Translations under genes and position numbers: made by a program
In this document: piece by piece, positions 1-43,541 of the stretch
Layout: each line of letters starts with the position of its first letter
Numbering within the stretch: position 1 is the stretch's first letter
IMG/VR virus record: IMGVR_UViG_3300020016_000015
Location: 1 to 43,541 of that record
DNA: 43,541 nt
Reading direction: 5' to 3' (one strand)
From: a virus
Lineage: Duplodnaviria; Caudoviricetes
The notes under the pieces: model-generated
The model's input: only the letters and a program-made list of their open reading frames with translations
Database searches by the model: none
Told to the model about the DNA's origin: nothing

Positions 1-390
1 TACATCGCGAACGCCAAGGCGAATGGGATAGCCGGGAAGGCGGCGAGGCGATCGAATTGGGACTGGCTCGCGCAGCAGCTGGCCAAGGCTTGCCTCGGCG
101 AGAAGGAGAGCATCGACATCGGTAAGTTCATCGCCGTGCTGGAGGTGAATGGCGTGGACTACTCGAAGTGGACCAACCGAAATAGGGGGTGGGAGGGTAG
201 GTTCCGCATGACGGGGCGGGTTGTGCTGCAGAAGGTGGTGGCGGATCGAGGTTCGCTGCTGCTGCCGGAAGGTGTGGTGGTGGAGGCACCGGAGGAATGG
301 CGCGAGCGGTTCAAGACGAAGAAGGCCGCGCCCAAGGCGGCTGCGGTCGTGGCGGCGGTGAAGGAAGAGGTGGTCGACAGCCAGTTCTAA
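1..390 (+). CDS. C-terminal part of paralog A of the GxxGRxRMT family (N-terminal part at 43260-43541)
   Basis: Frame is open from base 1 (YIANAKANG...WDWLAQQL...GWEGRFRMTGR). It aligns closely with the 2409-2894 protein and continues the ORF at the right end of the window. Confidence 0.85.
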   Translation, partial: YIANAKANGIAGKAARRSNWDWLAQQLAKACLGEKESIDIGKFIAVLEVNGVDYSKWTNRNRGWEGRFRMTGRVVLQKVVADRGSLLLPEGVVVEAPEEWRERFKTKKAAPKAAAVVAAVKEEVVDSQF

Positions 391-407
391 GTCACTGAAA
401 TAAAGAA

Positions 408-439
408 CCGCCCACCCCGGCTTGCGCTGGGGTGGGCGG
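408..439 (-). terminator. Intrinsic terminator between convergent genes
   Basis: Stem CCGCCCACCCCGG / CTGGGGTGGGCGG, followed by TTCTTTATTT on the minus strand. Confidence 0.7.
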
Positions 440-441
440 AA

Positions 442-684
442 CTACATTAAGCTGCGACGGCCGGTGGCTGCTAAGTCGGCCTTGGGGTGGGAACTAGTGC
501 GATTGTCACCCTTATAACGTAGCTCAGCGAATGGCCAGTGGACAAGCCAATCGTCGTCGCGGGTTCCAATCACGTAACCAATAGAATCGATGGGGATGAA
601 GTACTCACCAATACCGCAACGAGAATGGCGAATGGTGCGCACTTCGAGGCAGCCTTTTATAAGGCGGCGGGTGGCTTTATTCAT
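442..684 (-). CDS. Hypothetical early protein
   Basis: Begins MNKATRRLIKG. The start overlaps the stop of 681-890 (ATGA coupling). Confidence 0.55.
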   Translation of the reverse strand: MNKATRRLIKGCLEVRTIRHSRCGIGEYFIPIDSIGYVIGTRDDDWLVHWPFAELRYKGDNRTSSHPKADLAATGRRSLM

Positions 685-890
685 TCGTCGGCCTCCACTT
701 CTGGGCCGGACGGGGGAAGGTCGGCGTCCCGACGCACGAACCAATATTTCCAAGCAACCCCGCCGAGGCAGAAAGAAATAAGGGGCGAGGCCACGAAGAA
801 ATAAAGCGGGCGAGGCCAGCCAGCGAAAGAGGAACAGCACACGGCGCAGCGAAAGCCCTCACGACGAGCCAAGGCGAAAAACGAACGCAT
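681..890 (-). CDS. Hypothetical protein with a hydrophobic C-terminal segment
   Basis: AGGAGA RBS upstream; lies directly downstream of promoter 920-949. Confidence 0.5.
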   Translation of the reverse strand: MRSFFALARREGFRCAVCCSSFAGWPRPLYFFVASPLISFCLGGVAWKYWFVRRDADLPPSGPEVEADE

Positions 891-919
891 GGGGTGGTTC
901 TCCTGTTGATGTTAGACGA

Positions 920-949
920 ATTATAGCACGGGGCGGGGGGTCGTGTCAA
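920..949 (-). promoter_or_regulatory. sigma70 promoter TTGACA-N18-TATAAT with extended -10 TG
   Basis: Perfect consensus boxes. The -35 and spacer are nearly identical to the promoter at 2076-2104. Confidence 0.8.
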
Positions 950-1003
950 GATATAGTTCGCCATTCGCAGTGAAAAGCAGGGCGTCAGCTTGCAGTACCC
1001 ACG

Positions 1004-1169
1004 TATCCTCCGTACCTACCTTACCAAACTTTTTCTCCCCCTCCTCTACACGTGGGGTGGGGGCTGTAGAAAAGGCTTGTACAATGAAACAGTTGTAGCA
1101 GGGGGTGTGTGTGGGGGGGTAGCGTAGAGAGCGCCGCCTGTAGGCTTGGTAAGGTAGGCACGCGGGATA
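1004..1169. repeat. Non-coding region bounded by a 24-bp imperfect inverted repeat, with internal GTAG/CTAC repeats (candidate origin or terminus)
   Basis: 1004-1027 TATCCTCCGTACCTACCTTACCAA matches the reverse complement of 1146-1169 at 21 of 24 positions. Confidence 0.6.
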
Positions 1170-1279
1170 GGCGCGTATCGAGAAGGCGCCTGCGGCTCGC
1201 ATTCGCTGAGTGCGTCGAAGTGGCTCGCCCGACTGCGCCCGAAGCTTTTCGCGATGCTTCATGCTCGCACATACAGAGA

Positions 1280-1308
1280 AGCCCCCGCAGCTTACGCCAC
1301 GGGGGCTG
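1280..1308 (-). terminator. Probable terminator hairpin
   Basis: AGCCCCCG...CGGGGGCT stem just downstream of the 47-aa ORF. Confidence 0.45.
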
Positions 1309-1331
1309 GTTCTATTCGGCGAGTGTGGTGT

Positions 1332-1475
1332 TCAGATGCCCCGTCTTCGGATTTCGATTTCCAGTTCGTGGATTCGCTTCGCGTCTTCCTTGCTGGGGGG
1401 CTGCGAAACCTCTCGCATCAGACGCGCCCATTCGACGTCGATTTCTTCTTTGGACATCTTCCGTGGATTCTGCAT
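1332..1475 (-). CDS. Small 47-aa helical protein, below the ORF-track cutoff
   Basis: MQNPRKMSKEEIDVEWARLMREVSQPPSKEDAKRIHELEIEIRRRGI. Has an ACGGAG RBS, its own promoter (1517-1545) and a downstream hairpin. Confidence 0.7.
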   Translation of the reverse strand: MQNPRKMSKEEIDVEWARLMREVSQPPSKEDAKRIHELEIEIRRRGI

Positions 1476-1516
1476 TTCTGTGCTCCGTTTCGTGGGCGGG
1501 ATCGCCCGACATTCCC

Positions 1517-1545
1517 ATCAAACCACACCGCGATCCGCCGCGCAA
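1517..1545 (-). promoter_or_regulatory. Variant sigma70-like promoter TTGCGC-N17-TTTGAT (T at -11)
   Basis: 17-nt spacer and extended -10 TG. Shares TCGCGGTGTGGTTTG with 2978-3006 and precedes an RBS and ORF. Confidence 0.6.
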
Positions 1546-1572
1546 TGCGACAGATCGCCGCATGGGGCTTCG

Positions 1573-1785
1573 CTATTTCGGCGGGAGCAGTTCTTCCACG
1601 TCGAAGTGCTGCTTCAGTAGTTCCACTACTTCTTCCCTGGTTTCGCCTGCCCCGATAGCGTTTCGCGCGGTCACCATAAGAACCTTGTCGTCGCCCCACC
1701 CGAAGGATCGCCATTCGACGGTTTCGTCGGGTAGGAAGGTGAGGAAGATGATCGGCTTCGTGGCGTTGCTGTTCTTCTGTTTCAT
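1573..1785 (-). CDS. Hypothetical early protein
   Basis: 70-aa ORF in the leftward early operon, with a purine-rich RBS region. Confidence 0.65.
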   Translation of the reverse strand: MKQKNSNATKPIIFLTFLPDETVEWRSFGWGDDKVLMVTARNAIGAGETREEVVELLKQHFDVEELLPPK

Positions 1786-1798
1786 TGTCTTCTGTTCC

Positions 1799-2038
1799 TT
1801 ATTCGTTCACAATGTCTTGGCTGCGCGCCCAGATTTCGAAGGCCTCGGTCACTTCGGCCTTGACTTCGGCGGTGTCGCGGTCGAGGGCTTCGATTTCGAG
1901 GATGCGAAGCGTGTCGACGTCGGGCGCCCCGGCTTCTTTCAACGCACGAAGTTCTGCTGCCTTCGCGTCTTCGCCTTGGAGGAAGAAGCCCTCCTCGTCG
2001 GTTTCGTCGCTCTGTGAGAAGAAGTGGATGGTCTTCAT
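1799..2038 (-). CDS. Acidic hypothetical early protein
   Basis: Begins MKTIHFFSQSDE, after the RBS ACGGAGCAGAAC and promoter 2076-2104. Confidence 0.7.
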   Translation of the reverse strand: MKTIHFFSQSDETDEEGFFLQGEDAKAAELRALKEAGAPDVDTLRILEIEALDRDTAEVKAEVTEAFEIWARSQDIVNE

Positions 2039-2075
2039 GTTCTGCTCCGTTTCGGGGGTTGGACCCCACGCCGCG

Positions 2076-2104
2076 ATTGTAGCACGGCGCGGGGGTCGTG
2101 TCAA
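2076..2104 (-). promoter_or_regulatory. sigma70 promoter TTGACA-N17-TACAAT with extended -10
   Basis: Consensus boxes and spacing. Confidence 0.8.
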
Positions 2105-2115
2105 GAGGTCTTCGC

Positions 2116-2346
2116 TCAGACTTCGTTGCAGTGGAGAACGTAGCAATCGTCGAACTGGAGACGCTCGCCTTCGTCTGTGTAGCCGTGCTTCCGCGCTAGC
2201 TCGACCATTTCGTTCTGTTCCTTCTCGAAGAGTTCGCGAACGCTGGCTTCTGCTATTTCGCGGGTGGTGGCGACGGCCAAGAGGCCGAGCCCATCTTCCA
2301 CCAGCAGGTGGTGGTCTTCTTTCGGGATTGCGTAGGCGACGAACAT
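2116..2346 (-). CDS. Hypothetical early protein
   Basis: Begins MFVAYAIPKEDHH with an AAAGG RBS. It is the protein-like C-terminal part of the 317-aa track ORF. Confidence 0.65.
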   Translation of the reverse strand: MFVAYAIPKEDHHLLVEDGLGLLAVATTREIAEASVRELFEKEQNEMVELARKHGYTDEGERLQFDDCYVLHCNEV

Positions 2347-2408
2347 TGGGAAACCTTTCGGGGTTGGTGGTGGTGGAGTGGGGGTGGCTCGCGCCACCCC
2401 CGGCCTTC

Positions 2409-2894
2409 TCAGTGCTGGTGCTTCGCCACCCACTCGGCGGGGGCTTCGAGGGTCTCGCCGTCCGGGAGGGAGAGCGTCCCGGCCTCGGCCACGACCCGCT
2501 GGAGGGCGAGGCGCCCGGTCATCCGAAGCCGCCCCTCCCAGCCCTTGCTCCGGTTCTGCCACCGGCTGTGGTCGACCCCATTCGCCTCGAGGATCGCGAG
2601 GAACCGGTCGATGTCGATCCGGTCCTTCTCGCCAAGGCACTCGCCCGCGAGGGTCTGCGCCAGCCAATCCCACGAGGAGCGCTGCGCCGCCTTGCGTGCG
2701 AGGCCTGCGTCCTTCGCCCGGTGCGCGTACCGGTCCTTGTAGGCGACGGCCACCACGCTCCGGGCCTTCGCGTTGTCCGCTGCGACTTCGGGATCGATCG
2801 CGACGGTCTGGGCTTCGATCGCCTCGCCAAGGGAGAGGGCGAGGGGGGCTTCCGCCTCGGGGGCGGGGGTGGTGTCGGGCTTCTTGCGTGCCAT
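2409..2894 (-). CDS. Paralog B of the GxxGRxRMT family
   Basis: MARKKPDTT...WDWLAQTLAGECLGEKDRIDI...GWEGRLRMTGR. Strong similarity to paralog A. Confidence 0.85.
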   Translation of the reverse strand: MARKKPDTTPAPEAEAPLALSLGEAIEAQTVAIDPEVAADNAKARSVVAVAYKDRYAHRAKDAGLARKAAQRSSWDWLAQTLAGECLGEKDRIDIDRFLAILEANGVDHSRWQNRSKGWEGRLRMTGRLALQRVVAEAGTLSLPDGETLEAPAEWVAKHQH

Positions 2895-2977
2895 CGGTCT
2901 GCTCTCTGGGCGGGCTGGGGCCTCGGGCCGGGGGCCTCGGGGGCGGGGAGGGGGCCGCCGCCCCGCCTCGCACCCAC

Positions 2978-3006
2978 ACCAAACCACACCGCGAGCCCGC
3001 GCGCAA
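2978..3006 (-). promoter_or_regulatory. A-free variant sigma70-like promoter TTGCGC-N17-TTTGGT
   Basis: Same architecture as 1517-1545. The minus strand has no A from 3014 to 2969. Lies upstream of paralog B. Confidence 0.55.
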
Positions 3007-3064
3007 GCGCCGCGTGCGCATGGCTGCCATGCGTCCTGCGCATGGCGATTGGCACGCTTTGTGC

Positions 3065-3141
3065 TGCAAAGTGCGGCCAAGTTGTTGGCCGAAGCTTTTG
3101 CAACTCCCCCAACCCCGCTACGATCTTTGATCGTAGCGGGG
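3065..3141. repeat. Tandem hairpins in the divergence region
   Basis: Perfect 13-bp inverted repeat CCCCGCTACGATC-ttt-GATCGTAGCGGGG (3113-3141), plus the TGCAAA..CGGCCAA/TTGGCCG..TTTGCA stem (3065-3102). Confidence 0.7.
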
Positions 3142-3227
3142 CGGGACCCGTCTCGAATTGCGACGTATTACACTTTGCGTATCCTGGTATCATAAGTCAA
3201 TGTGCGTCGAACGCCTCAGAATATCCT

Positions 3228-3262: not shown

Positions 3263-3287
3263 CAACGCGCCACATATGGAGGAACTC

Positions 3288-11962: not shown

Positions 11963-12109
11963 ATGCCTTCGAAGTCCAAGAGGCAGGCCAAGCTTATGCA
12001 GGCTGCGGCGAATAACCCGAAGTTTGCAAAGAAGGCCGGGGTCCCCACCAAGGTGGCCAAGGAGTTCAATCAGGCCGATAAAAAGAGCAAGAAGTTCGGC
12101 CGACGCTGA
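11963..12109 (+). CDS. Small basic conserved phage protein (48 aa), below the ORF-track cutoff
   Basis: MPSKSKRQAKLMQAAANNPKFAKKAGVPTKVAKEFNQADKK with a GGAGG RBS; resembles a widespread small phage protein family. Confidence 0.75.
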   Translation: MPSKSKRQAKLMQAAANNPKFAKKAGVPTKVAKEFNQADKKSKKFGRR

Positions 12110-13587
12110 TGGATTTCGCCGATCTGTTTCGGCCTAGGCGGGGTTATGCCTCGGGGTTATTGTCCCCCGAAGGTCCATCAATGCGCTCCCGTGAATTACC
12201 CCCTACAGAGAAATTAGCTTACAAGCTTGGTCAGTTCTTTGACCCTGGAACGCCGGGTGATAAGCGAGAAATTTACGACCAAGCAAAACGAAATGTAACC
12301 GCTGCTGGTATTCTTTCGCCGCCGGTTGGGCTCGGCCTCGGTGTTCTAGATTTAGAACATGCTGCTCACAAATACAAAGAGGGCGAAGGAAGCCTTACTG
12401 ATGTTGCAATGGCGGCTCCGGGGGCATTGCCGGGGGCGGCTGGTAAGCTACCCCGATTGAGGGGTGGCTATCATGGTACTTCGTCCCCTGATAATTTTAC
12501 TAAATTTGTAAAATCTGAACGCGATATGGGGACTCATATTTCAACTGACCCCAATGTGGCTAGAGGTTATGCTATGGGGGATTACACCCCCAACAAATTT
12601 AGACAAGATTGGGCCACCATTAATAATTCTCCTGTCGGCACTGTAAGCGGTCTTAGAACTATACCTGTTGTAGCGGATATTCGCAACCCAATAAGATATC
12701 CTGGTGACCCGGTTAATTGGCAAAAGCCTGGTAATGTACTCAGGACATTAGAAGTAAATAGAATGGAAGGTTCGGTTGAGGATACTAAACGATACACCAA
12801 ATTATTAGGTGATCTGGAAAAGGTAAGTGGTAAGTCAGGTGATTGGGAAGGCAATTTTTATAATTATTTAAAAGATAGAAATGTTGATGCAATTCAATAT
12901 CCACATACAACTACCTCAACTAAAGGTACTGGGTTTAATTCATTTATGGCGCTCGATCCAGAACAAGTTATGTCCAAATTTTCTCCGGAAGGGCAGGCGT
13001 TAATAAAAGAACGCGGCGTAATTAAGCCGTCAATGTCGCTTAATTGGAACCCGATGGATCAAGCGTTTTGGAATATTAAGCATGGATTGCTTGAGGCACA
13101 GCAAGTAGCTAAAAACCCGGAATTTAAGGGATTACTTGCTAAAGGTATCCCAACAGCAGAAGAATTATCTAAAAGTATGAACATTTCGTTAAAGGCGGCG
13201 CAAAATGAAGTAGATAAGAGTATATTACAAAAATTAAAATGGGGCAGTATAGAAAAGTCATTGCCCGACAATCATTACGAAGCACAGGAAATGACCAATA
13301 GCTGGCATAAGGCAGTTGCCAATGAGATGAACCCTAGCACTATGAATTATTTCAATGAGGGAGCGTCTTGGAGTGGAATACCCAAGCATCATTTACCGTA
13401 TGTTGTACAGGAATTGGGGTACACCGGTAATGGCGAGTTATTAAATAAGAAATTAGCAGATATGTCGGCTTCGGAATACAAGAAATTTTCCAAAGCTTTG
13501 GACAACGCTGATGAGATGACGTTTCCTCCGGGACACCCTAATTTAACATCGGAACAACTAGAAGCATTTTATAAGAAAACTGAATAG
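12109..13587 (+). CDS. ADP-ribosyltransferase-like (ART-PolyVal type) protein
   Basis: YHGT...F...GTHISTDPNVARGYA...IPVVADIRNP...DAIQY...FMALDPEQV. AT-rich relative to its neighbours. Confidence 0.65.
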   Translation: MDFADLFRPRRGYASGLLSPEGPSMRSRELPPTEKLAYKLGQFFDPGTPGDKREIYDQAKRNVTAAGILSPPVGLGLGVLDLEHAAHKYKEGEGSLTDVAMAAPGALPGAAGKLPRLRGGYHGTSSPDNFTKFVKSERDMGTHISTDPNVARGYAMGDYTPNKFRQDWATINNSPVGTVSGLRTIPVVADIRNPIRYPGDPVNWQKPGNVLRTLEVNRMEGSVEDTKRYTKLLGDLEKVSGKSGDWEGNFYNYLKDRNVDAIQYPHTTTSTKGTGFNSFMALDPEQVMSKFSPEGQALIKERGVIKPSMSLNWNPMDQAFWNIKHGLLEAQQVAKNPEFKGLLAKGIPTAEELSKSMNISLKAAQNEVDKSILQKLKWGSIEKSLPDNHYEAQEMTNSWHKAVANEMNPSTMNYFNEGASWSGIPKHHLPYVVQELGYTGNGELLNKKLADMSASEYKKFSKALDNADEMTFPPGHPNLTSEQLEAFYKKTE

Positions 13588-25161: not shown

Positions 25162-26576
25162 TCCGGGTCCAGCTGAATATTGGTCTTGTAACCCCGGCCA
25201 AAGAATGAGAACACGGCTTGGGCTAGGCTCTCTTTCGCTTGGAGGGCAGCTGTAATTCGCTTGTCCAGCGGTGTTCCCCATAAGTCAATATACAAGCAAC
25301 TTTCAGCTGTCTGGCCGTGACGGTGAATTCGGTCTTCGATTTGGCTCCTATCATCGAGGGAGTAGCTGTTTTCGGCGAACACCATCGTGCTACACTTGTC
25401 GATGATATCTTCCCCGCCAAGCAAGGTGTGTCCGTATTTTCCAGCGCGAATTTGGACCAGAATAACCCGGCAGCTTGGATCACCATTGAACTTATCCTTC
25501 TGAGCCTGAATTTCGTCGGGCTTCATCATTCCCTTGATGAACGCTGGGTTGAATTCCTCCAGCGTCCTGGATAAAATCCCAAGCGTGTAACGGTGGGCGT
25601 AAGGTATCACCACCTTACCCTCGATTTCATCCTCCACGATCTGCTTAACCAACAAGAACCGAGGGTTCTCATGGGGGTGGACTAATTCCTCCACCGACTC
25701 GTCTTCCTTGATAATGAACCCGGACTGAATTTGGGCCAGTTTTATGTATTTCGTAATGAAAGCGTCCACAGTCACGTTTTCGGTGGCGCTAAGCCACACG
25801 ACAAAATCGTTCTCCATGCTCTGGTAAGTTCGCATCAAGTGAGGGCTGAGAACATACTGCCTCGAAGTATATATCTTCGGGGGCAGGTCGGTCCAGTCTT
25901 TCTTAGAGGCTCGGAAGATGAACCGCTCGATAGTGTCGGCCAGCAGTTCTTCGTTCTGCGATCCGATCACCTTCTTGCCCTTGAAACCACCCATCCGGCA
26001 GAACGTTGTTTTAAACGGCCAGAACTTGCTGGTAACGGCGCCGACTATTCGCATCTGCGCCCACAAGTCGTGAGGTCCCTGCGTTACGGGCTTGCCGGAC
26101 AGGAGCCTCCGATATCTGAACACGGCGGCGATTTTCATCGCGGCCTTGGTCTGCAGACTGTCGTGTGTTTTCACCTGCACCGATTCGTCCAGCACCAACA
26201 TCGCGTTCCGCGCGTGTACGAACTGGGTTATGTACCCTTGGACGGCTTCCTTGCGGATTGCCTCATAATTGATGATCAGAACCGGCGGTCTGTCGTACTT
26301 CTTATTTGCGAATTTGGCGTTTTCGTAGTCCGCACCGGAATTGAAAACATGGGCGTCCACGTCAATGCCGTGCTTCTTGATTTCGTCCAGCCATCCGGTC
26401 TTGAACGAATTAGGGCACACAACCACGAGCCGGGTGGCGCTCTTGGTCTTCACCATTTCAGTGAATTCGGTCAGGACCGTCAGGGTTTTCCCGAGGCCCA
26501 TTTCCATGTAGTAGGCGAACCCAGGCTTACCACTAGCCGCCTTGAGTGCTTTCTGTTGAACTTTCAGTAACTGCAT
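25158..26576 (-). CDS. SNF2-family helicase
   Basis: MEMGLGKT, VVVCP, INYE, LDES, LSGKP and Q.EDRIHRHGQ motifs. Confidence 0.92.
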   Translation of the reverse strand: MQLLKVQQKALKAASGKPGFAYYMEMGLGKTLTVLTEFTEMVKTKSATRLVVVCPNSFKTGWLDEIKKHGIDVDAHVFNSGADYENAKFANKKYDRPPVLIINYEAIRKEAVQGYITQFVHARNAMLVLDESVQVKTHDSLQTKAAMKIAAVFRYRRLLSGKPVTQGPHDLWAQMRIVGAVTSKFWPFKTTFCRMGGFKGKKVIGSQNEELLADTIERFIFRASKKDWTDLPPKIYTSRQYVLSPHLMRTYQSMENDFVVWLSATENVTVDAFITKYIKLAQIQSGFIIKEDESVEELVHPHENPRFLLVKQIVEDEIEGKVVIPYAHRYTLGILSRTLEEFNPAFIKGMMKPDEIQAQKDKFNGDPSCRVILVQIRAGKYGHTLLGGEDIIDKCSTMVFAENSYSLDDRSQIEDRIHRHGQTAESCLYIDLWGTPLDKRITAALQAKESLAQAVFSFFGRGYKTNIQLDPD

Positions 26577-27117
26577 GTTCCCCTCTTCTGAACGATTCGC
26601 TGAGTGTACGCTCCGTCAAGGCCATCCACTCATTAACTCTCTCGAATATCTTGTAGTCCCATTGAATTCGCTTCCTTACGTAGTTCTGGATAATGAGACG
26701 CATTTCATTCTTGTGGGTCGACACATACCGGTTCCCCATCAAGCACTCCACCGACAAGAAGTGGAACATTTCCATCATGTCGGCCAGCTTTACTATTTCT
26801 CTGTATCTGACATCTGCGTGATCATACCACGCCGAGCCCACCGTGTCAATCTCTATTTCAGCTATGGTGATGTAAGGCTTTGCTGTGGAGGGAATATCCC
26901 CGGTGAGCGATTCCCTGTCGTCATGGTGGAGGGCAGCTTGGGATAACATACATATTTCTGCCAAGCCGTCTATACCGAACCACGGGGCGATCCGGGTACA
27001 TATTCGCTCCACGTTGAAGCAATGCTCCGCCACGGATTGAGTTTGAATAGTAGGAACGATAGCCCACCGCTTAATCGTGCTTAGGCGGGCATCCAGTTCG
27101 TTGAATACCGTCGTCAT
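26533..27117 (-). CDS. datZ: HD-domain dATP triphosphohydrolase (DatZ-like)
   Basis: KRW.IV.T...QSVAEH...ALHHD..E..TGDIPS..K...VKLAD; adjacent to purZ. Confidence 0.82.
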   Translation of the reverse strand: MTTVFNELDARLSTIKRWAIVPTIQTQSVAEHCFNVERICTRIAPWFGIDGLAEICMLSQAALHHDDRESLTGDIPSTAKPYITIAEIEIDTVGSAWYDHADVRYREIVKLADMMEMFHFLSVECLMGNRYVSTHKNEMRLIIQNYVRKRIQWDYKIFERVNEWMALTERTLSESFRRGEHAVTESSTESTQGG

Positions 27118-27406
27118 GTTCTACTCCCTGCATCCGAAGAGCCACATAGGCTAAGAACGAAAAGTTGGCTTGATCCATCAATTCGATGAGTGAGTTCTCG
27201 TTGAACTTATCTTCGCGCAGCTGGTCTTCGAACTCCACGATTTCGGCGCGGAGCAAATCCATAATGCGCGGTAGCGTTTCCATCGTGGGGGTATCTTTGT
27301 GGGAATTCTTATCGAGTTTAGCGATCATCCCGGCGATGAACGGTATAATGTACGGGCGGAATTTTTTCAGCGAGTCTGGCAACGTGACGATTAGGATACT
27401 AGTCAT
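27071..27406 (-). CDS. mazZ: MazG-like nucleotide pyrophosphohydrolase (MazZ-like, putative dGTP to dGMP)
   Basis: All-alpha E-x2-E...E-x2-D motif (AEIVEF...IELMDQANF), located between purZ and datZ. Confidence 0.6.
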   Translation of the reverse strand: MTSILIVTLPDSLKKFRPYIIPFIAGMIAKLDKNSHKDTPTMETLPRIMDLLRAEIVEFEDQLREDKFNENSLIELMDQANFSFLAYVALRMQGVEHDDGIQRTGCPPKHD

Positions 27407-28457
27407 GGCTCCACCAATTCGAACGTTCGATGTCTTCAATCTTTGGGCCGAACCCAACTAGAAGATCAAACTTCTTGCTGAGCACGGCCGACGCTTCGTG
27501 GAGCCCGTCGATGAATTGGATGTGTTCCTCGGGAGTGAAATAGTCCATGTGGCTTGCGAACACGTAATCGGGGTCGTTGGCGACGCAAGCCTCGAGGAAT
27601 TGGGTCATGGAGAAAGTGGCCACGCGACGGACCCTCTTCGTCACCGTGGTTATTTCAGGCTCACGTTTCAGTGCCTCCCATGTGGTTTCCTGCTGATCAA
27701 AATACCAAGTACCACTAGAATGCCCATCCACGTCGCCAACCCGAATGGGGTATGATCGGATGGCCATGTAAGTACGAGCAAGATGCCTAGGAGGAATTCT
27801 AGCATCGGCTAACCCCTGCATTACCGTGCACTCACGGCTTGTTACTTTGGGATAGAAGCGCGAATTGATACCTAAGCTGAAACCCTGGGCCACTTCCATG
27901 AAATAGGCGTGGTGCTCGGGTTCGATTGCGTGATCCATAAGCATCACGTTCTTCGCGACGCGGCCGAGGGATCGGTCAGCGATAGCATTCGGTTCCCTGC
28001 GGATTTTTCGCACCAACGCCGCGCCGGTTCCGCTCCGGGTGCCAGCGACCGCGCCGATTGACCCCTGTTCTTCCTCGCGCTTATCCTCGTCCGTCACGAT
28101 AGCGGCGTTATGGTGCACGAAGATTGGGATATAAGGATACCTCTCGGCTTCCTCTTTCAGTATGTCGCGGTCAATCACCGCCCCGGCGGATAAATACACC
28201 GGGATAGAAAGTCCCAATTTGTGGAGGGACACAGCGAATGTGGGCAGTTGTTTGAGTACAATTTTCTCGTCGCCGAAATAACTGGTGTGTCCGCTATTCG
28301 GTCCCCCGCTGTAAATAGCGCCAGCGAAATTGAAAGCATGTGGGGCAAGATTTTTATACGCTTGCCATGCGAGCCACGCTGAAAGTGCGCCCTTGCCCGT
28401 GGAGCCGAACTGGCCGTCAACGACGCAGTGGACCCCTTTGTTCTGGAACAAGGTCAT
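27399..28457 (-). CDS. purZ: PurZ-like 2-amino-deoxyadenylosuccinate synthetase
   Basis: DGQFGSTGKG (Ser in place of the PurA catalytic Asp), NSGH, E.AQGFSL, YP..TSR, YPIRV, TTVTKR.RR; short 352-aa form. Confidence 0.92.
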   Translation of the reverse strand: MTLFQNKGVHCVVDGQFGSTGKGALSAWLAWQAYKNLAPHAFNFAGAIYSGGPNSGHTSYFGDEKIVLKQLPTFAVSLHKLGLSIPVYLSAGAVIDRDILKEEAERYPYIPIFVHHNAAIVTDEDKREEEQGSIGAVAGTRSGTGAALVRKIRREPNAIADRSLGRVAKNVMLMDHAIEPEHHAYFMEVAQGFSLGINSRFYPKVTSRECTVMQGLADARIPPRHLARTYMAIRSYPIRVGDVDGHSSGTWYFDQQETTWEALKREPEITTVTKRVRRVATFSMTQFLEACVANDPDYVFASHMDYFTPEEHIQFIDGLHEASAVLSKKFDLLVGFGPKIEDIERSNWWSHD

Positions 28458-28789
28458 TAGTCGGCCTGCTTGTTCGCGTGGTCGGGGTGGAGCATCGCGG
28501 CGAGGGCGGTGTAACCCGCCCCATCGGTGAAATTGTCCTCGGAATAGCCGTACGTCGAACGGGCCGTCTTCACCATGGCCATCATTTGAGCGACGTCATA
28601 AGGGCGAAGTTTAACCTCGCCACGGATAGTGAACGAATGGTTGATGTAGACCGACCACAAATCGGCGATCATGCCGAATGATCGCTCGGTGTGGCCGTGT
28701 TCCTGCCCCCGCTTGCGGATAGCGTCGCCAGCGTCGAGCAGTACTTTCTCGGGGACAGTCAAATCGGTGGGCTTGATATTCGGGTTCAT
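28457..28789 (-). CDS. DUF6378-like protein
   Basis: R...HG....F..IA.LWS.Y...VA.MM...K.AR.....D...D.AGY. Confidence 0.75.
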   Translation of the reverse strand: MNPNIKPTDLTVPEKVLLDAGDAIRKRGQEHGHTERSFGMIADLWSVYINHSFTIRGEVKLRPYDVAQMMAMVKTARSTYGYSEDNFTDGAGYTALAAMLHPDHANKQAD

Positions 28790-29964: not shown

Positions 29965-30161
29965 TATTCCTTCTCCTTTAGTATCTTATGGACCCCGAGG
30001 AATTCGGTGGATTCCTTCCTATAGACGTGCACGACACGGGTCCCCATTTGTTGCAACACAACGCCTTCCATTCCCTGCAGCGTCGTATAAGTTCCGACCA
30101 GAACCCCGATGAACCCGTCGTGCTTAGCCTTATACACATCGTGTTCAACCACATTACTCAT
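29964..30161 (-). CDS. Hypothetical protein
   Basis: 65-aa ORF coupled to the polymerase stop. Confidence 0.65.
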   Translation of the reverse strand: MSNVVEHDVYKAKHDGFIGVLVGTYTTLQGMEGVVLQQMGTRVVHVYRKESTEFLGVHKILKEKE

Positions 30162-31947
30162 CGTACTTGTCCAGCTTGCTGCCGTAAGACGCTCGAGCCC
30201 AATCCGGCCCAGACCCCAAACCGAATGGAATAGGGACGGACAGTTTCAGTTCGTCGGCGACGTGTTCAACGATGCCAATTAGCTCGGCTACTTCGTGCCC
30301 CGGATCGCGCTGCCAAAGCAAACTGTCGTGAATGGTGAGCAGCATCTGAACCTTGTCGGGGTACACATCTTCGTACTGGCAAGCCCGGAGCAGGCTTAAT
30401 TTCAGGTGTTCACCGCCCACGTTCTGAATAATGCGCGACACGGCGCGATATGCGAACCGTGGGTTATCACAGTAAGCGCGCCTGCCGAGAATAGTCTTGA
30501 CATAGCCCCGCCGCTTGAATGTCTGTACAGCCAACTGTTGGAACTGACCAATCTTGGGGAACGCGTCGCTAAGGAAGGCGGAGTGTGCCGCGCGTGCTCG
30601 CTCCAACGGCCAACGCATGTGCCCAGACAGGGTGGGCGGGGACATCATAGTTAGCATCCCCATCGACAGTCGCTTTGCTACCTCGCGGTCTAGGTTAAGA
30701 ATTTGCGAGGCTCTATCGTGGATATCCATAGTTCCATTTCGGTATCCTTCTGTGAGCACCGGATCACCCGAATAATGAGTGAATAATCGTGGTTCTTGTT
30801 GCTTTGCATCTGCTTCTTCGAAGACGAATCCTTCATCAGGGACAACAAGCCTTCGCACAACTCTTCCCACTTCGATGTTTCGCTTGGGGAAAGCTTGTAA
30901 GTTAGGTTCGGAACATGAAAATCTAACGCCCGCAACTCCGTAGTCATCCGATTTGGATTGGTTGAGTATAGGATGAACTCGTCCGTTAACGTTGTGAGTA
31001 TCGATGAGCGGCGCGATGAAACTGTCCCGCGCCTTTTCGAGCCGCCGGACCGTGAGGATCGCTTGCCCGATGTCATTTGTTTCCAACCATTTTTCTGTAA
31101 ATGAGAACGCCCCGTTGTCGGTCTTGGCGAAGCGCTCGTCAGTGAAACCGTTAGCCCTAAACAGAGCCTCGACTGATTTCGGTGACCGCGCGTTGAACCC
31201 TGGAACAAATACCTTGCTGGCCTCCTTGATAGCTTCGTCGACGTCGACGACTACCTTCTGTGAGTATTCGGGGTCGATCTTAAGTCCCCGGTTGTGCATC
31301 CGCGCCACATAAGGCAGCAGATCGCACTCAAGCTTCCACGGAGCCCTGATTTCATCCCCGTCCAGAATTCGCTGTTGCTTTGCCCATAGTTCGAGCGTTG
31401 AAATGCCGTCGCCGGTCGCGTAATCGACCACGAGGGGGTGGTCCCCTTCCAGGCGCCAGAAATTCCCCATCTGCTTCTTCTCGGGGAGGCCACCGAACCT
31501 ACGCGCCAATTCGGCGTATAGTTCTGCCCCCTTCTTGGGGGTGACGCCGTGGCGAATACAGCACTCTTCTAGGCTGTACCCCTGTGTTATGTCACTGATG
31601 ATCGCCTCGTTGATCATCGTGTCTTCTAGTGGAGAGCCCAGAACAATCCCATGCCTAAGAGTGAACCTAAGATCAAAGCCCAGATTATGCCCAACAGTCC
31701 GAAAACCGAGTCGACTACGAGCCCTAAAAGCGCCATCAAGTTCGCGTTCGAATTCCTCTGCGTTGGGAACATTGCCCCCTCCTTCATGTCTGAGTGGGAC
31801 GTATATTGAATATTTATCATTCGTGATGACATGGCCGCAAATCCTGTCCTTGATGGTTAGACCGGTGGTTTCGGTGTCGTAGGCGATAGGCCCAGAATTA
31901 CTTTCAACGATGTCGAGCGCCAACTGTGGTTCAATGCATTGTATCAT
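30154..31947 (-). CDS. dpoZ: Family A DNA polymerase with 3'-5' exonuclease (DpoZ-like)
   Basis: DTETTG, HN..FD, YA..D exonuclease motifs; PNLQ; motif A D..QQEPR; motif C HDS; no 5'-3' exonuclease domain; linked to purZ. Confidence 0.8.
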   Translation of the reverse strand: MIQCIEPQLALDIVESNSGPIAYDTETTGLTIKDRICGHVITNDKYSIYVPLRHEGGGNVPNAEEFERELDGAFRARSRLGFRTVGHNLGFDLRFTLRHGIVLGSPLEDTMINEAIISDITQGYSLEECCIRHGVTPKKGAELYAELARRFGGLPEKKQMGNFWRLEGDHPLVVDYATGDGISTLELWAKQQRILDGDEIRAPWKLECDLLPYVARMHNRGLKIDPEYSQKVVVDVDEAIKEASKVFVPGFNARSPKSVEALFRANGFTDERFAKTDNGAFSFTEKWLETNDIGQAILTVRRLEKARDSFIAPLIDTHNVNGRVHPILNQSKSDDYGVAGVRFSCSEPNLQAFPKRNIEVGRVVRRLVVPDEGFVFEEADAKQQEPRLFTHYSGDPVLTEGYRNGTMDIHDRASQILNLDREVAKRLSMGMLTMMSPPTLSGHMRWPLERARAAHSAFLSDAFPKIGQFQQLAVQTFKRRGYVKTILGRRAYCDNPRFAYRAVSRIIQNVGGEHLKLSLLRACQYEDVYPDKVQMLLTIHDSLLWQRDPGHEVAELIGIVEHVADELKLSVPIPFGLGSGPDWARASYGSKLDKYDE

Positions 31948-33875: not shown

Positions 33876-34319
33876 TTAGGCCGCAGCGGGTTCCGCCGCC
33901 TTCGCTTCCGCAGCCTTCGCTGCGGCACCACCGAGCGCCTGCTTGGGCAGGTTCAGCGGCACTTCCGAGCCGTCGAGCGCGACCGCCTTGCCGTTCTTGC
34001 GAACGAACGTGGCGAGCATGTTGCGCAGCGTCATGCGAGCGCGGCCTTCCGCGCCGTGGCGCTTCTCGGCGACCTGGCCTTCGTAGTGCGCCACCTTGTC
34101 CTCGGCGATGCCGTTCTTACGGCACAGGTCGAAGAACTTGGCGAACGAGAAGGCGTTGGCCTCGGTGCACTGCTCCTTGATGAACAGCGCGAGCGGGTCG
34201 TCGCCGCCGGTCTTGTACTTGCCCGCGTACTTCGCCGGGACGATCGACTTCGTGGTCTTCGGTTCGGTCGGAGCGGTGGGCGGCGAATCGGTCGCCGAAG
34301 CTTGGGTCTGGTCGGTCAT
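33876..34319 (-). CDS. Paralog C of the GxxGRxRMT family
   Basis: SIVPAKY...GGDDPLA...C...F..LC..NGI...GAEGRARMTLRN; strong AAGGAG RBS and its own promoter. Confidence 0.8.
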   Translation of the reverse strand: MTDQTQASATDSPPTAPTEPKTTKSIVPAKYAGKYKTGGDDPLALFIKEQCTEANAFSFAKFFDLCRKNGIAEDKVAHYEGQVAEKRHGAEGRARMTLRNMLATFVRKNGKAVALDGSEVPLNLPKQALGGAAAKAAEAKAAEPAAA

Positions 34320-34358: not shown

Positions 34359-34388
34359 ATCCTAGCACACCCGACCGGTTGGTGTCAA
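34359..34388 (-). promoter_or_regulatory. sigma70 promoter TTGACA-N18-TAGGAT
   Basis: Boxes with TG extension upstream of paralog C. Confidence 0.7.
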
Positions 34389-38062: not shown

Positions 38063-38443
38063 CTAGCCGTGATAGTGTGGCTTGTCACCCTGAATTTCCA
38101 TATGGAGCTTCACGTCTTCGGTGAATTCCTTGGTGAAATCGGTGATGATTTCACTGGCTATATCAAGCACGTTTTCTGGGGTACTAATTCGCCGCAGCAC
38201 TTCCATCAGCATCGAACTGGCTAAGTTCACGGTGCACGCGAGCACCCGGTTCGGATTGGTGCCGTTCAGCTGCGCCGAATGGAGCCAGTGTAAGTGGGCA
38301 CGGTAAGCCCCATCGACCAGCATGTAAGCGGAGGCATCCACACCCATCTTATCCCGCAGCAGAACCACGGTTCTATCGACGTAAGTGTCGACAATTTCAG
38401 GCTGTAAGTTCCACTCAGCGCGCAGTTCCTCAATCTTCTCCAT
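38063..38443 (-). CDS. Hypothetical protein
   Basis: 126-aa ORF overlapping the upstream stop. Confidence 0.7.
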   Translation of the reverse strand: MEKIEELRAEWNLQPEIVDTYVDRTVVLLRDKMGVDASAYMLVDGAYRAHLHWLHSAQLNGTNPNRVLACTVNLASSMLMEVLRRISTPENVLDIASEIITDFTKEFTEDVKLHMEIQGDKPHYHG

Positions 38444-38993
38444 CGCCTTGATCCTTCTTGGGTTTGTACTTCTGTTCAGTATCCTGAACCCATGATGGGC
38501 TCAGCTGGTAGAACTCACTACTCATTCCCTCGGGGAGCATCAGCTTGCCCCCGGCTTCGCGCACTTTCCTGGACAGAAGGTTGCGCCCCGTCATTCTCAG
38601 CCGACCCTGCCACCCCTTGGTCGTGCGGTTGTACTTGGCGAGGTTGATCCCATTCGCTGCGCAGATCGCCTCAAATAGCTCCATGTTCGTGCCGCCCTTA
38701 TTGGTGCACATTTCATTGAGATAGATCGCCAGTTCGTCACCACAATGCGTAGGGTGGCCTTGCTCGCTGTAGTTCGCGCGGTAGCGGTTCGTGATGATCG
38801 AGCCCACCTTGGGCGGTTCGACCCGCTTGATTTCGGCCTCGTCGGCCGCTTCGTCCCACTCGTTATTCCAGCGGGCGAAGTCGGGGTCTTCCTCCATGTA
38901 CGGGCATTCGCCTGCCAGCACACCCTCTTTATACGCGAGCGCCCCGCTTATTGGGACTCCGTTTATCCGTTGAATGTCCACTCGACCCTCCAT
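38430..38993 (-). CDS. Paralog D of the GxxGRxRMT family with N-terminal Rmf/CrpP-like motif
   Basis: GALAYKEG....CPY......W...WD, then CGDELA...C...F..IC.ANGI...GWQGRLRMTGRN. Confidence 0.8.
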   Translation of the reverse strand: MEGRVDIQRINGVPISGALAYKEGVLAGECPYMEEDPDFARWNNEWDEAADEAEIKRVEPPKVGSIITNRYRANYSEQGHPTHCGDELAIYLNEMCTNKGGTNMELFEAICAANGINLAKYNRTTKGWQGRLRMTGRNLLSRKVREAGGKLMLPEGMSSEFYQLSPSWVQDTEQKYKPKKDQGDGED

Positions 38994-39180
38994 GCGTAGA
39001 TTTTAACACAGGATGACCGGTCCTGTCAAGTTGTATTTCACGCAACGCGCGCAAGGCGCACCACACTTCTCGAGCGAAGGCGCCAATGTCCGCCTCTGAA
39101 AGATGGGGCACCAGCGGAGTGGTGCGCTTACGCACCACTTCTTCGATGACGGCGATTTGCTTACGGTGAAATTCTCTCAT
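38929..39180 (-). CDS. Hypothetical protein
   Basis: Begins MREFHRKQ; coupled to the upstream stop and overlaps the promoter. Confidence 0.45.
   Translation of the reverse strand: MREFHRKQIAVIEEVVRKRTTPLVPHLSEADIGAFAREVWCALRALREIQLDRTGHPVLKSTHGGSSGHSTDKRSPNKRGARV
39000..39029 (-). promoter_or_regulatory. sigma70 promoter TTGACA-N18-TAAAAT giving a probably leaderless mRNA
   Basis: Only 6 nt separate the -10 box from the ATG at 38993. Confidence 0.7.
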
Positions 39181-40652: not shown

Positions 40653-40825
40653 TCTAGACCCGTTTGATCGTTGTCGAGGTATAAGTTCACTTCCCATTCC
40701 TCGAACCCCAAGTCAAATAACAAACCAGCAGCCGTCTTGCGGGACATCTTCTTTTCCCAATAAGCCTGCTGGATCGAGTCCTTCTTGTCTTGTATCTTCC
40801 TAGGGAGAATGGGGGGAAGGCTCAT
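40649..40825 (-). CDS. Small hypothetical protein
   Basis: Begins MSLPPILPRK; coupled to both neighbours. Confidence 0.6.
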   Translation of the reverse strand: MSLPPILPRKIQDKKDSIQQAYWEKKMSRKTAAGLLFDLGFEEWEVNLYLDNDQTGLE

Positions 40826-41106
40826 ACCTCGGCTTCTTCCTGCAGGAAGCGCCACTGCTCGATTTGCAGCCTGCTGCCCCTTGGCATGACGACGATGGGG
40901 TTGAACCGGCACCACTCAGGTGAATGGCCGGACCAACCGTTACGGTACATGTCGAGGGCGAACTTCTCGTGCGGGATGCCCGACACCATTTCAGCTACGA
41001 GCCAAGTTAGGTCGGTCATAAGATGCCGCACGATGATGTCTTCACCCTGTCGTTCGACCGAGTACAGGTCGAACCGGGGCGAGTTGGGCTCGTCGTATTT
41101 CGTCAT
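40822..41106 (-). CDS. Hypothetical protein
   Basis: Begins MTKYDEPNSP; GAGG RBS, coupled. Confidence 0.65.
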   Translation of the reverse strand: MTKYDEPNSPRFDLYSVERQGEDIIVRHLMTDLTWLVAEMVSGIPHEKFALDMYRNGWSGHSPEWCRFNPIVVMPRGSRLQIEQWRFLQEEAEV

Positions 41107-41390
41107 GCGACCAACCTCAACTTGGGCTTGCGCTTGACGTTCTTGCGCTCGCCGATGCGGAAGCTTGCCCGCACTGCATTCGCGACGGCTGCGACGCAAC
41201 AGTAGCGCGGTGAAATGGTGGCTCCGAAGAACCAATTGCGGAGCGTGGTGTTCGTCACGCCGCTCGACTTGGAGATTTGGTTGATCACCGTGCCGAACTT
41301 GACGCCTTGGGCCTCCGCCTCAAATTGCAGCGCCGTGCGCAACAGGTCGATCACGGGGTCCTTGGTCTTGAATAGGTAGGATTTGTACAT
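41103..41390 (-). CDS. XRE/Cro-like HTH protein
   Basis: KDP.ID..RT...ISKSSGV...TL.NWF.G.T.SP. Confidence 0.7.
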   Translation of the reverse strand: MYKSYLFKTKDPVIDLLRTALQFEAEAQGVKFGTVINQISKSSGVTNTTLRNWFFGATISPRYCCVAAVANAVRASFRIGERKNVKRKPKLRLVA

Positions 41391-41391
41391 G

Positions 41392-41610
41392 TCACATTCC
41401 GTTCAGTTTGTTCCAGAACCCCAGAACCATGTCGTGGTCTGCGGTTCCCTGCGCGATCATGTTACCGTCCCGATCCTTAAGGATCAGGTGAATATGGTTG
41501 ATGGGCCGGTCAGGGCAAACGTACGCCGCGATTGAATAGGCGCGGGGTATTTCCATCGTGTTGTGAAGGAGGTGGGTTATGTCCACCACATTATCCTTTT
41601 CGTCAGCCAT
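41392..41610 (-). CDS. Hypothetical protein (paralog of 41603-41953)
   Basis: CP....H.H.IL...DG...AQ.T.D motif. Confidence 0.65.
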   Translation of the reverse strand: MADEKDNVVDITHLLHNTMEIPRAYSIAAYVCPDRPINHIHLILKDRDGNMIAQGTADHDMVLGFWNKLNGM

Positions 41611-41953
41611 CGATAGCCTCCACCATTGTGCGCAGCACGTCTTCGTTGCCTTGGATCAAGCATTGGAACATCACGCCCCAATCACCCGATGATTTCCGCC
41701 GGGAGTAGTAGCGCATCGCAAGATTGTGCAGGTGGGTTTCGGCCGCGTTCATTTCGGCCGGGGCGATCTGCTTCCGCATCAGATCAATCAGTTCTTTGTC
41801 CACGGTGGCTTGAGCCATCGGGAGGCCATCGAGCCCTATCAGAACGATGTGGGCGTGGTCTGTTCCCGCCGTGGGGCATTGGAACACTTCGATGCGATCC
41901 GCCTCAGGAAGACCGCCGTAGTCGACTTCTTCTGTGTCTACTTCTTTGACCAT
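41603..41953 (-). CDS. Hypothetical protein (paralog of 41392-41610)
   Basis: ACGGAGCAGAAC RBS and the same CP..H.H motif. Confidence 0.7.
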   Translation of the reverse strand: MVKEVDTEEVDYGGLPEADRIEVFQCPTAGTDHAHIVLIGLDGLPMAQATVDKELIDLMRKQIAPAEMNAAETHLHNLAMRYYSRRKSSGDWGVMFQCLIQGNEDVLRTMVEAIDG

Positions 41954-41982
41954 GTTCTGCTCCGTTGGTTGACAGTACGCAC

Positions 41983-42011
41983 ATTTTAACACACGCGCGG
42001 TACGCTGTCAA
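41983..42011 (-). promoter_or_regulatory. sigma70 promoter TTGACA-N17-TAAAAT
   Basis: Consensus boxes with TG extension. Confidence 0.78.
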
Positions 42012-42184
42012 GTAGTTTTCGTGGTTGCCGCCGCGATTTTGCCCTCAGTGTAACCGATTCCGTACCATTTTTCAGCAAAAGTCATAACCACGTTGAGCAA
42101 AGCATCGAATTCGTCGTCATCGATTTCGACTATGGCTTCAAGCAAACCAACGATGGCTTCGAGGTCGTCTGATGGTTCGCTCAT
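42008..42184 (-). CDS. Small acidic protein
   Basis: Begins MSEPSDDLE; ATGA-coupled. Confidence 0.6.
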   Translation of the reverse strand: MSEPSDDLEAIVGLLEAIVEIDDDEFDALLNVVMTFAEKWYGIGYTEGKIAAATTKTT

Positions 42185-42414
42185 TTCCCATCCCACGTTG
42201 CAAGGCAGTAAATCAAGTAGGCGATGATGATCAGAACCGTCAGGAGGCAAACTCGCCACCCGGCGATTAAGAATGGGAACACAGCGAAATAAAGGAACAG
42301 AGCAAGAGTGCCGCCCATCGCTGTGTAGAACGCGGTGGTGGCCACCCATTGAACACCACTTACTGTCTTATAGAAGTCGCGGATTAGTTCGTCGCCGGGG
42401 TTCTTTTCGCTCAT
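42181..42414 (-). CDS. Small membrane protein with two hydrophobic helices
   Basis: Long hydrophobic stretches. Confidence 0.65.
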   Translation of the reverse strand: MSEKNPGDELIRDFYKTVSGVQWVATTAFYTAMGGTLALFLYFAVFPFLIAGWRVCLLTVLIIIAYLIYCLATWDGK

Positions 42415-42638
42415 GATCTGCTCTTCAGTTGGGGTTTGAGTGTGACGCGAACTATGTACTGCGCGCTATGTTTCTGGTATGTGTTGATGTCGGATGGTAA
42501 CTGAAAGCCATAAGACATGATCCCGCCCCACCAAGCGTGGTGTTCGTCGTGCCACAACACGCAAGAGAACTGAGGGCTTTGTATGTGGCGGTTATCCCAA
42601 CCGTTAAGCCCGTTCATAATGGGGTACTTGGGGGTCAT
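42411..42638 (-). CDS. Hypothetical protein
   Basis: Begins MTPKYPIM; ATGA-coupled. Confidence 0.55.
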   Translation of the reverse strand: MTPKYPIMNGLNGWDNRHIQSPQFSCVLWHDEHHAWWGGIMSYGFQLPSDINTYQKHSAQYIVRVTLKPQLKSRS

Positions 42639-42850
42639 GGTTCGCACCTCATCTGGGTGTACTTCTTGTAGCGGCGGTGTTTCGGCGCATGGGAGTCGGA
42701 CCGTTTGTAGGTGTCCCACACTTTGTTACTCTCCAGTGAACAAGCACGGCACCGCCTGTGCTTCGCCTCTTTCTTCTTACGGTAGTATGTGTTCTCGGGG
42801 GTGAATTCGTGCCCCCATTTACAGTGGGTTTGTGTGACGTGGCCCATCAA
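42635..42850 (-). CDS. Stand-alone Cys/His domain of the type attached to HNH endonucleases
   Basis: THC..GH.FT.ENT......R.CR.C. Confidence 0.65.
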   Translation of the reverse strand: MMGHVTQTHCKWGHEFTPENTYYRKKKEAKHRRCRACSLESNKVWDTYKRSDSHAPKHRRYKKYTQMRCEP

Positions 42851-43062
42851 ACGCGCTTCTGCGTGCCCTTGGTGGTAACTTCCACCGTCTCGGTGACTTT
42901 CACCAGTTCGATGACCACATCGTCGTAGAAGTAGGTCATGTCGTTCTGGAGTTGTTCCTTAGCCTGTTCGTACGTGGGCTCGTCACTGAATGTGGTGGAT
43001 TTGTACCAATTCTCGCTCTTGGCCGCTTTCCAGCGGGTATAGTAATAAATCTTGGTGGTCAT
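42847..43062 (-). CDS. Hypothetical early protein
   Basis: GGAG RBS after promoter 43090-43118. Confidence 0.7.
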   Translation of the reverse strand: MTTKIYYYTRWKAAKSENWYKSTTFSDEPTYEQAKEQLQNDMTYFYDDVVIELVKVTETVEVTTKGTQKRV

Positions 43063-43089
43063 TTCGGTGCTCCAATTGTGAGTACGCGT

Positions 43090-43118
43090 ATGGTAGCACG
43101 CGGAGCGCAGCCTGTCAA
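43090..43118 (-). promoter_or_regulatory. sigma70 promoter TTGACA-N17-TACCAT
   Basis: Consensus boxes with TG extension; divergent from 43179. Confidence 0.75.
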
Positions 43119-43178
43119 TGGTGTTTAGTGTTCAGGTGGGTGAATGTTGTGTTTCTGCTCTGAATACATAAGGGGGGA

Positions 43179-43207
43179 TTGACAGGGGCGGGTTGGTGTG
43201 ATTTAAT
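43179..43207 (+). promoter_or_regulatory. Variant sigma70 promoter TTGACA-N17-TTTAAT (T at -11)
   Basis: Perfect -35, GGTGTG before the -10, upstream of paralog A. Confidence 0.65.
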
Positions 43208-43259
43208 TAGGTACGGCTCGCGTGGTGCGAGTTCGGTGCAGCGAAACAGGGTGATTGAA

Positions 43260-43541
43260 ATGGCAAAGGGCAGTAAGAAGGCGAAGAAGCCGACCAAGGC
43301 GGAGGCTGAGCAGATCGAGAAGGATCGGCTTGAGGCGCACGCGAGAGAAGGAATTAATGAAGCGCTCGAGGAAGTGGAGCGCAGTTACGAACCGGTGGTC
43401 GGCCCCAACGTTCAGGTGGGCGAGTTCGTCGACCAGCCCGACCAAGGCGAGCCCACTGAAAATGGTGAGCAGACGGAAGGCCAGCTCGCCGAGGGCGAAA
43501 AGGAGCCTGAAGAGAAGGAAATCGTCTCGGTGGTCGCGCCG
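43260..43541 (+). CDS. N-terminal acidic part of paralog A (runs off the window end)
   Basis: MAKGSKKAKK...EKEIVSVVAP, open for 94 codons to the last base. SVVA matches SVVAVAYKDRY of paralog B. Confidence 0.8.
   Translation, partial: MAKGSKKAKKPTKAEAEQIEKDRLEAHAREGINEALEEVERSYEPVVGPNVQVGEFVDQPDQGEPTENGEQTEGQLAEGEKEPEEKEIVSVVAP

Follow-up and report, generated by a model that had tools for sequence, protein, structure and literature searches.

Four dispersed genes, here called A, B, C and D, in the IMG/VR virus record IMGVR_UViG_3300020016_000015 (43,541 nucleotides; the whole stretch is referred to as the window) encode versions of one protein domain. The window is a near-complete podophage genome of 43.5 kb, from whose gene content we infer that the phage incorporates 2-aminoadenine (Z) into its DNA. 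We propose, with a probability of about 0.4, that the four genes share one basic, mostly helical domain of ~100 residues, which would constitute an early DNA-binding module and is predicted to prefer Z-containing DNA. Among the explanations considered, a Z-preferring binder would fit most of the observations, since it would account for the tie of the family to purZ (encoding 2-aminoadenylosuccinate synthetase), for early expression from multiple copies, and for the benefit that a defence nuclease would draw from carrying the module.

The paralogues and their relatives in phages carrying purZ

A preliminary description, made from the window's letters alone, had recognized four dispersed paralogues of one unknown family, with A and B as the most similar pair, and this description stands. 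The G..GR.RM motif occurs at exactly four places in the six frames of the window, all of them in A, B, C and D, whose alignment contains 19 invariant columns; identity to B amounts to 59% for A (C-terminal part of A), versus 33% for D and 26% for C. None of the four copies matched a Pfam or PHROG family, the best values among 104 homologues being expectation values (E) of 0.004 and 0.011, respectively. No PADLOC or Pfam match was obtained for B, C and D, and no PD-(D/E)XK nuclease domain was found among the window proteins; a profile search of the PDB with the family yielded chance matches only (E >= 0.11), and ESM Atlas searches returned nothing usable.

Paralogue A crosses the ends of the window. 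Its database twin (P0004, 228 amino acids (aa), from a contig of 43,697 bases) has five further residues where the window ends meet, one of which is the conserved Tyr; 15 bases are, thus, absent from the window at this point, the gene is intact, and the possibility of a broken gene is ruled out. Upstream of the core of D, a conserved acidic motif containing Cys-Pro plus two Trp residues (38829-38969, minus strand) is present in 20 of 32 D-type open reading frames (ORFs). A likeness of this arm to ribosome modulation factor (RMF), perceived by eye, has weak profile support: PF04957 reached E 0.038 in 2 of 104 homologues, and an 18-sequence profile retrieved no RMF chain from the PDB at E <= 10.

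A profile search with the window family matched 1,569 clusters among 7,794 candidates, and among 50,697 cultured phage records the family was found only in Ochrobactrum phage vB_OspP_OH (2 records; OH in the following). The OH proteins p04, p15 and p23 (MT028492) represent the same subfamilies B, D and C at matching gene positions, and a purZ-type gene is present as in the window; OH differs in having three copies with a longer D (335 aa), whereas the window has the additional duplicate A. Record MT028492 assigns no function to p04, p15 and p23, nor are they discussed in the accessible part of PMC7139368.

The IMG/VR sample for the window-type family comprised the 30 longest records behind 58 loci, plus OH; PurZ was detected in 25 of these 31 carriers, including all 14 that are at least 90% complete. 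The 14 near-complete relatives carry four copies (six genomes), three copies (seven) or two copies (one), so that four copies, initially considered unusual, are ordinary for the clade. In a quick tree of 110 domains, listed without support values, A falls inside the B group, while C and D form older branches, suggesting that A is a later duplicate of B and that C and D are old subfamilies. A dosage-critical factor, as proposed in the preliminary description, may be considered, but old, position-conserved subfamilies that differ in their N-terminal parts fit a division of labour at least as well.

Beyond this clade, the best full-length outside match of the refined window-family profile was gp37 of Alteromonas phage ZP6 (E 0.77; first locus set, 21,521 ORF fragments), a member of phrog_8941/8878, a family of hypothetical proteins that also includes ZP6 gp46, p36 and p46 of phiVC8, and proteins of Acinetobacter and Klebsiella Z siphophages. 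These remote homologues of the window copies are likewise often multi-copy and purZ-linked, but contain the motif RMNLGN instead of RMTGR, and in some of them the N-terminal part resembles, by weak Pfam matches, an SH3 domain or a zinc ribbon. HH probabilities are 92.6% (E 4e-7) between the window family and the ZP6 type, 95.1% between a bacterial form of the domain, described below, and the window family, and 99.2% between the bacterial form and the ZP6 type, the reversed control giving 0.13%. The three groups are, thus, read as homologous in their core domain, with the bacterial form as the bridge between the two phage groups; an intermediate sequence (L171) is encoded in a complete purZ phage. 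The ZP6-type family is large, with 2,442 representatives at 50% identity. Both phage groups have basic cores, their median net charges being +5 and +4.

Searching the cultured records with ZP6 gp37 matched 58, distributed over Vibrio (38), Acinetobacter (10), Alteromonas (2), Burkholderia (2), Klebsiella (2) and, with one record each, four further genera; no cultured record outside purZ-carrying genera was matched by the ZP6-type search at E <= 1. A PurZ query (E <= 1e-25) retrieved 62 cultured records, whose counts per genus are identical apart from the addition of Ochrobactrum (2), S-2L and one record not listed. Hence, the family is present in about 60 of the 62 cultured phages of this purZ branch (2 + 58 records, paired at the level of genus counts rather than of single records). 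In IMG/VR, a purZ-family gene is found in 29/29 near-complete carriers of the ZP6 type (37 records, the longest of 77 loci) and in 6/6 near-complete carriers from a further set of 19 records, giving, with the 14 window-type relatives, 49 of 49 near-complete viral carriers overall, by a profile which also matches host PurA. The carriers, with genome sizes of 36-72 kb, include podoviruses and long-tailed phages; as they are related to each other, 49/49 does not represent 49 independent events. No copy was detected in phiM5, the nearest cultured relative without purZ, with either the ZP6-type or the window-type profile, and none of the actinophage records among the cultured phages matched the family. 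The linkage to purZ, proposed in the preliminary description as a test of its interpretation, is supported by these counts.

The bacterial form and the predicted structure

Scanning 185,579 prokaryotic genomes with a sequence pattern yielded 20 loci, of which 10 are phage-like stand-alone genes in bins and 10 represent a distinct bacterial form, found in alphaproteobacteria where the host is named. In eight of these ten, the fusion partner is a DUF6998-type nuclease, in another it is a GIY-YIG-like nuclease, and the tenth stands alone. A protein search added 18 bacterial-type sequences, namely 15 DUF6998 nuclease fusions, one GIY-YIG-like fusion, and two in which the domain follows an unknown domain. 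The shared domain is, thus, fused to more than one nuclease type (BisI-type in 15/18, GIY-YIG-like in 1/18), with the reservation that the GIY-YIG-like assignment is weak (E 0.009-0.06). The DUF6998-type partner matches the PADLOC methyl-directed restriction endonuclease PDLC03212 in 5/5 cases tested (E 1e-51 to 1e-58) as well as the solved BisI-family enzymes Eco15I (E 2e-37) and NhoI (E 2e-17).

The nuclease partner of the bacterial homologue accordingly belongs to the BisI/Eco15I/NhoI endonuclease family (PDB 8Q5M, 8Q5N), whose BisI enzymes read 5-methylcytosine (5mC) and 5-hydroxymethylcytosine, but not Z, while the window proteins are devoid of a nuclease part. BisI-like proteins are described as carrying such N-terminal domains with unknown function (PMC8281217, accessible part). 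The arrangement of a small domain together with an interchangeable nuclease is also that of type IV modified-base readers (EVE, SRA, winged helix); however, none of these showed a sequence or fold match to the shared domain among the listed matches. An EVE-type middle domain in L161, an impression gained by eye, found no match in Pfam or the PDB.

Defence-type neighbours occur at three of the eight bacterial loci examined—L155 adjoins a methyltransferase-Vsr-EcoRII cluster, and L159 and L164 adjoin candidate defence genes; L163 lies near a transposase, and the remaining four are situated among housekeeping genes. L156 and L161, which encode two different nuclease fusions of the domain, are each located directly downstream of clpB, suggesting that this position is an insertion hot spot. 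The fusion is rare, the centre genome being the one clear carrier out of 401 alphaproteobacterial genomes, and no plasmid carrier was found with ZP6 gp37 as query. In a quick tree of 86 of 180 rows, the bacterial group forms one branch (support 98). A third bacterial-type layout consists of an unknown domain of ~120 aa followed by the shared domain (L168:1111-1743, L169:1135-1743, P0257, P0258), one instance lying in a provirus without purZ; the two-domain version is also contained in one purZ-negative fragment. A second domain copy in the N-terminal half of P0257/P0258 was left unsupported (E 0.05-0.3 on a two-sequence set).

The structure models of B (predicted local distance difference test score, pLDDT, 83.8) and of ZP6 gp37 (79.7) consist mainly of helices, a long one of which bears the motif, and neither model has a clear solved relative. 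Weak matches concern helix-extended-helix modules, such as SAP, LEM, the Rho N-terminal domain and the C-terminal domain of T4 endonuclease VII (EndoVII). The B model reached structural Z-scores of at most 4.1, and 2.9-3.6 for these modules (EndoVII C-terminus: 3.6, root-mean-square deviation (rmsd) 2.7, 52 aligned residues; Rho-N: 3.5, rmsd 2.5, 48 aligned), which is the background range. Scores of the ZP6 gp37 model were 5.4 for FAN1 461-533 (rmsd 3.5, 64 aligned), the region that we take to hold the SAP domain, and 5.8 for a longer FAN1 match, again no higher than background, and these modules have roughly half the length of the phage domain. A Foldseek search of viral models retrieved only the three OH proteins with B and only the ZP6-type family with ZP6 gp37. 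Taken together, the nuclease fusions and the net positive charge of the phage cores lend indirect support to the idea that the domain binds DNA.

A predicted Z-DNA binder and competing explanations

Z places an amino group in the minor groove of every Z:T pair. Host proteins reading A:T minor grooves would, for this reason, handle Z-DNA poorly, so that the phage would supply its own binders of the Z genome. According to this proposal, the proteins would be made early and would coat or organise the phage Z genome, with the different N-terminal arms conferring a different partner or timing on each copy, and in some bacteria defence nucleases may have acquired this module, by which they would be drawn onto Z-type DNA. 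A more far-reaching version, which we regard as doubtful, holds that the domain would be the first dedicated Z-DNA reader, that its stand-alone copies would package, protect and express proteobacterial Z-phage genomes, and that some alphaproteobacteria would have captured the module onto BisI-type and GIY-YIG-like nucleases, resulting in restriction of Z phages.

Several observations weigh against a preference for Z. The methylcytosine motif of BisI-family enzymes, (H/R)(V/I/T/M) (PMC11347163, accessible part), is kept in its His-Thr version in 15/15 BisI-type fusions; thus, the fused nuclease can sense 5mC without the added domain, which may help with DNA binding or oligomerisation in a general way, and this weakens the case for a Z-reader. 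The bacterial domain is nearly neutral (median net charge +1), it also occurs in an 82%-complete provirus that lacks purZ, and the tree gives no direction of domain transfer. The structural matches, at Z-scores of 5.8 or lower, lie within background, and Foldseek on viral models did not join the B and ZP6 gp37 models. Moreover, the carriers share much of their replication module, so that the co-occurrence with purZ does not reflect independent events. Finally, no copy was detected in the Z phages S-2L, Wayne and Ghobes with the ZP6-type profile (the window-type profile was run on Wayne only), implying that the family is not needed for a Z genome; the tie to Z biology suggested at the outset, thus, holds insofar as a purZ-family gene accompanies the family in all near-complete viral carriers tested, but it is not universal.

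Alternatively, though this seems unlikely, the proteins would be cofactors of the host sigma70-RNA polymerase, helping to open promoters with Z at position -11. For the adenine at -11, an unsubstituted C2 is reported to be important for strand separation (PMC4496690, accessible part), whereas Z is substituted there, making a transcription problem on Z-DNA plausible. The family follows proteobacterial Z phages with consensus sigma70-type sites, in which an extended -10 TG is almost invariant. In the window, 15 near-consensus sites (defined by consensus -35, extended -10 TG and TnnnnT) are located at 949, 2104, 3234, 4068, 9387, 13598, 26849, 29416, 33795, 34388, 37509, 39029, 42011, 43118 and 43179; 14 of them have A at -11, all with the extended -10 TG, and T(-11) is confined to the site of A. 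The extended -10 TG is also present in 38/41 A(-11) sites of five other proteobacterial Z phages, i.e., in 52/55 over six genomes, and may be an adaptation to harder melting, a DNA-level answer to the transcription problem; phiM5, as a non-Z control, offered no scorable sites. The 15 window sites have GC-rich spacers, and at the site at 42011 (minus strand) an inverted copy of the -35 hexamer lies alongside, creating an imperfect palindrome (41968-42012).

The preliminary description had further assigned each copy its own promoter, with T at -11 for A and B. Strong sigma70-type sites indeed precede A, C and D, but the best site of B is weak (2.5 bits). Among orthologue sites, T(-11) was found in 6/18 for A, 0/19 for C and 0/30 for D (Fisher p 2e-4, not corrected for relatedness; C and D sites served to train the matrix, and 1/31 D regions fell below threshold), while in four-copy genomes 11/31 B sites exceeded the threshold (10 with A, 1 with C at -11) and four weaker sites had T. 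The pattern is, therefore, real and enriched at A (6/18 versus 0/49 for C and D, which are canonical), but amounts to a tendency rather than a rule; as a minority state among A orthologues, T(-11) is not a required bootstrap class. These data also bear on the polymerase cofactor, since A (that is, Z) at -11 is kept in 14/15 window sites and 12/18 A orthologues, the sites of these very genes included. In addition, fusion to a restriction nuclease is hard to square with a polymerase adaptor, and neither Pfam nor the structural search revealed likeness to a known transcription factor. In favour of a cofactor, S-2L, in which the family was not found, encodes a 106-aa fragment resembling sigma70 region 1.2/2 (L143:6951-7271).

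It is rather improbable that the stand-alone copies serve as anti-defence decoys, masking DNA or pairing with their counterpart domain on modification-dependent nucleases of the host. The presence of the same domain on bacterial defence nucleases and the early-looking, multi-copy genes with variable arms would suit such a role; however, the fusion is rare (one clear carrier in 401 alphaproteobacterial genomes, 10 loci in 185,579 species), and among the 10 fusion-scan loci no named host is a gamma- or betaproteobacterium, even though Z phages of these groups carry the family. To the same low degree, we credit a general DNA-binding or oligomerising protein, inherited with the replication module of the lineage and devoid of Z specificity. 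Such a protein would be in line with the relatedness of the carriers, with the modification sensor of the fused nucleases, and with the three Z phages of other lineages in which no copy was detected; yet the family spans podoviruses and long-tailed phages of 36-72 kb without matching, at E <= 1, any cultured record outside purZ genera, and it was not detected in phiM5. Least probable is a host shut-off, in which the proteins would bind adenine-containing host DNA, stop host transcription or replication and spare Z-DNA, as T4 Alc spares modified T4 DNA: the strong early promoter-like sites and the weak resemblance to SAP-like modules, which are AT-rich DNA binders, agree with it, but a host would be harmed by a defence nuclease carrying a module that prefers host-type DNA.

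Genome context and significance

Apart from the four paralogues, the window encodes an SU10-type portal and capsid, a family A DNA polymerase that is probably DpoZ-like, a primase-helicase, and purZ-type and datZ-type enzymes (Pfam, PHROG); coordinates are compiled in Table 1. The window purZ has Ser in the GDxxKG-equivalent motif, which we take to be diagnostic of PurZ. No MazZ-like gene was detected with Pfam and PHROG beside it (27071-28789), in contrast to OH, where such a gene is present; the neighbours of the window purZ are a DUF6378 gene and an unnamed 111-aa ORF. Directly after the capsid gene, a 492-aa ORF without a Pfam or PHROG match (12109-13587, plus strand) lies in a stretch of lower GC content (46%).

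Table 1. Paralogues, Z-pathway and replication genes, and promoter-like sites in the window.
Feature	Position	Strand	Remarks
Paralogue A, N-terminal part	43260..43541	+	acidic low-complexity arm and start of shared domain
Paralogue A, C-terminal part	1..390	+	most of shared domain; 15 bases missing at window junction
Paralogue B	2409..2894	-	161 aa; back to back with start of late (packaging) region; model pLDDT 83.8
Paralogue C	33876..34319	-	147 aa, most divergent; between primase-helicase and Pam3 gp33-like gene
Paralogue D	38430..38993	-	187 aa; conserved acidic Cys-Pro/Trp motif precedes shared domain
purZ-type 2-aminoadenylosuccinate synthetase	27399..28457	-	phrog_1211, E 5e-51
datZ-type dATP triphosphohydrolase	26533..27117	-	phrog_7076, E 3e-19
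Family A DNA polymerase	30154..31947	-	PF00476
Promoter-like site of A	43179..43207	+	TTGACA-17-TTTAAT; -35 consensus, extended -10 TG, T at -11; sequence match; 26 bits
Weak promoter-like site of B	2978..3006	-	TTGCGC-17-TTTGGT; T at -11; best upstream match, only 2.5 bits versus 26 for A
Promoter-like site of C	34359..34388	-	canonical A(-11), 18-base spacer
Promoter-like site of D	39000..39029	-	canonical A(-11), 18-base spacer

No papers on this family were found in a literature search that covered few subscription journals, and the supplements of BisI papers may list fusion proteins. In a paper of 2026, dZ-dependent restriction enzymes still figure as a target for screening (PMC12944874, accessible part). 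The family, uncharacterised and in no named family, is a candidate modified-DNA reader with stand-alone and nuclease-fused forms. It touches on the question of how Z phages make the host machinery handle their altered DNA, and it provides concrete candidates for both sides—in proteobacterial Z phages, a conserved set of early genes, and in bacteria, a small number of nuclease fusions. A Z-specific binder, if this reading is true, would, furthermore, be a reagent to detect Z-DNA.

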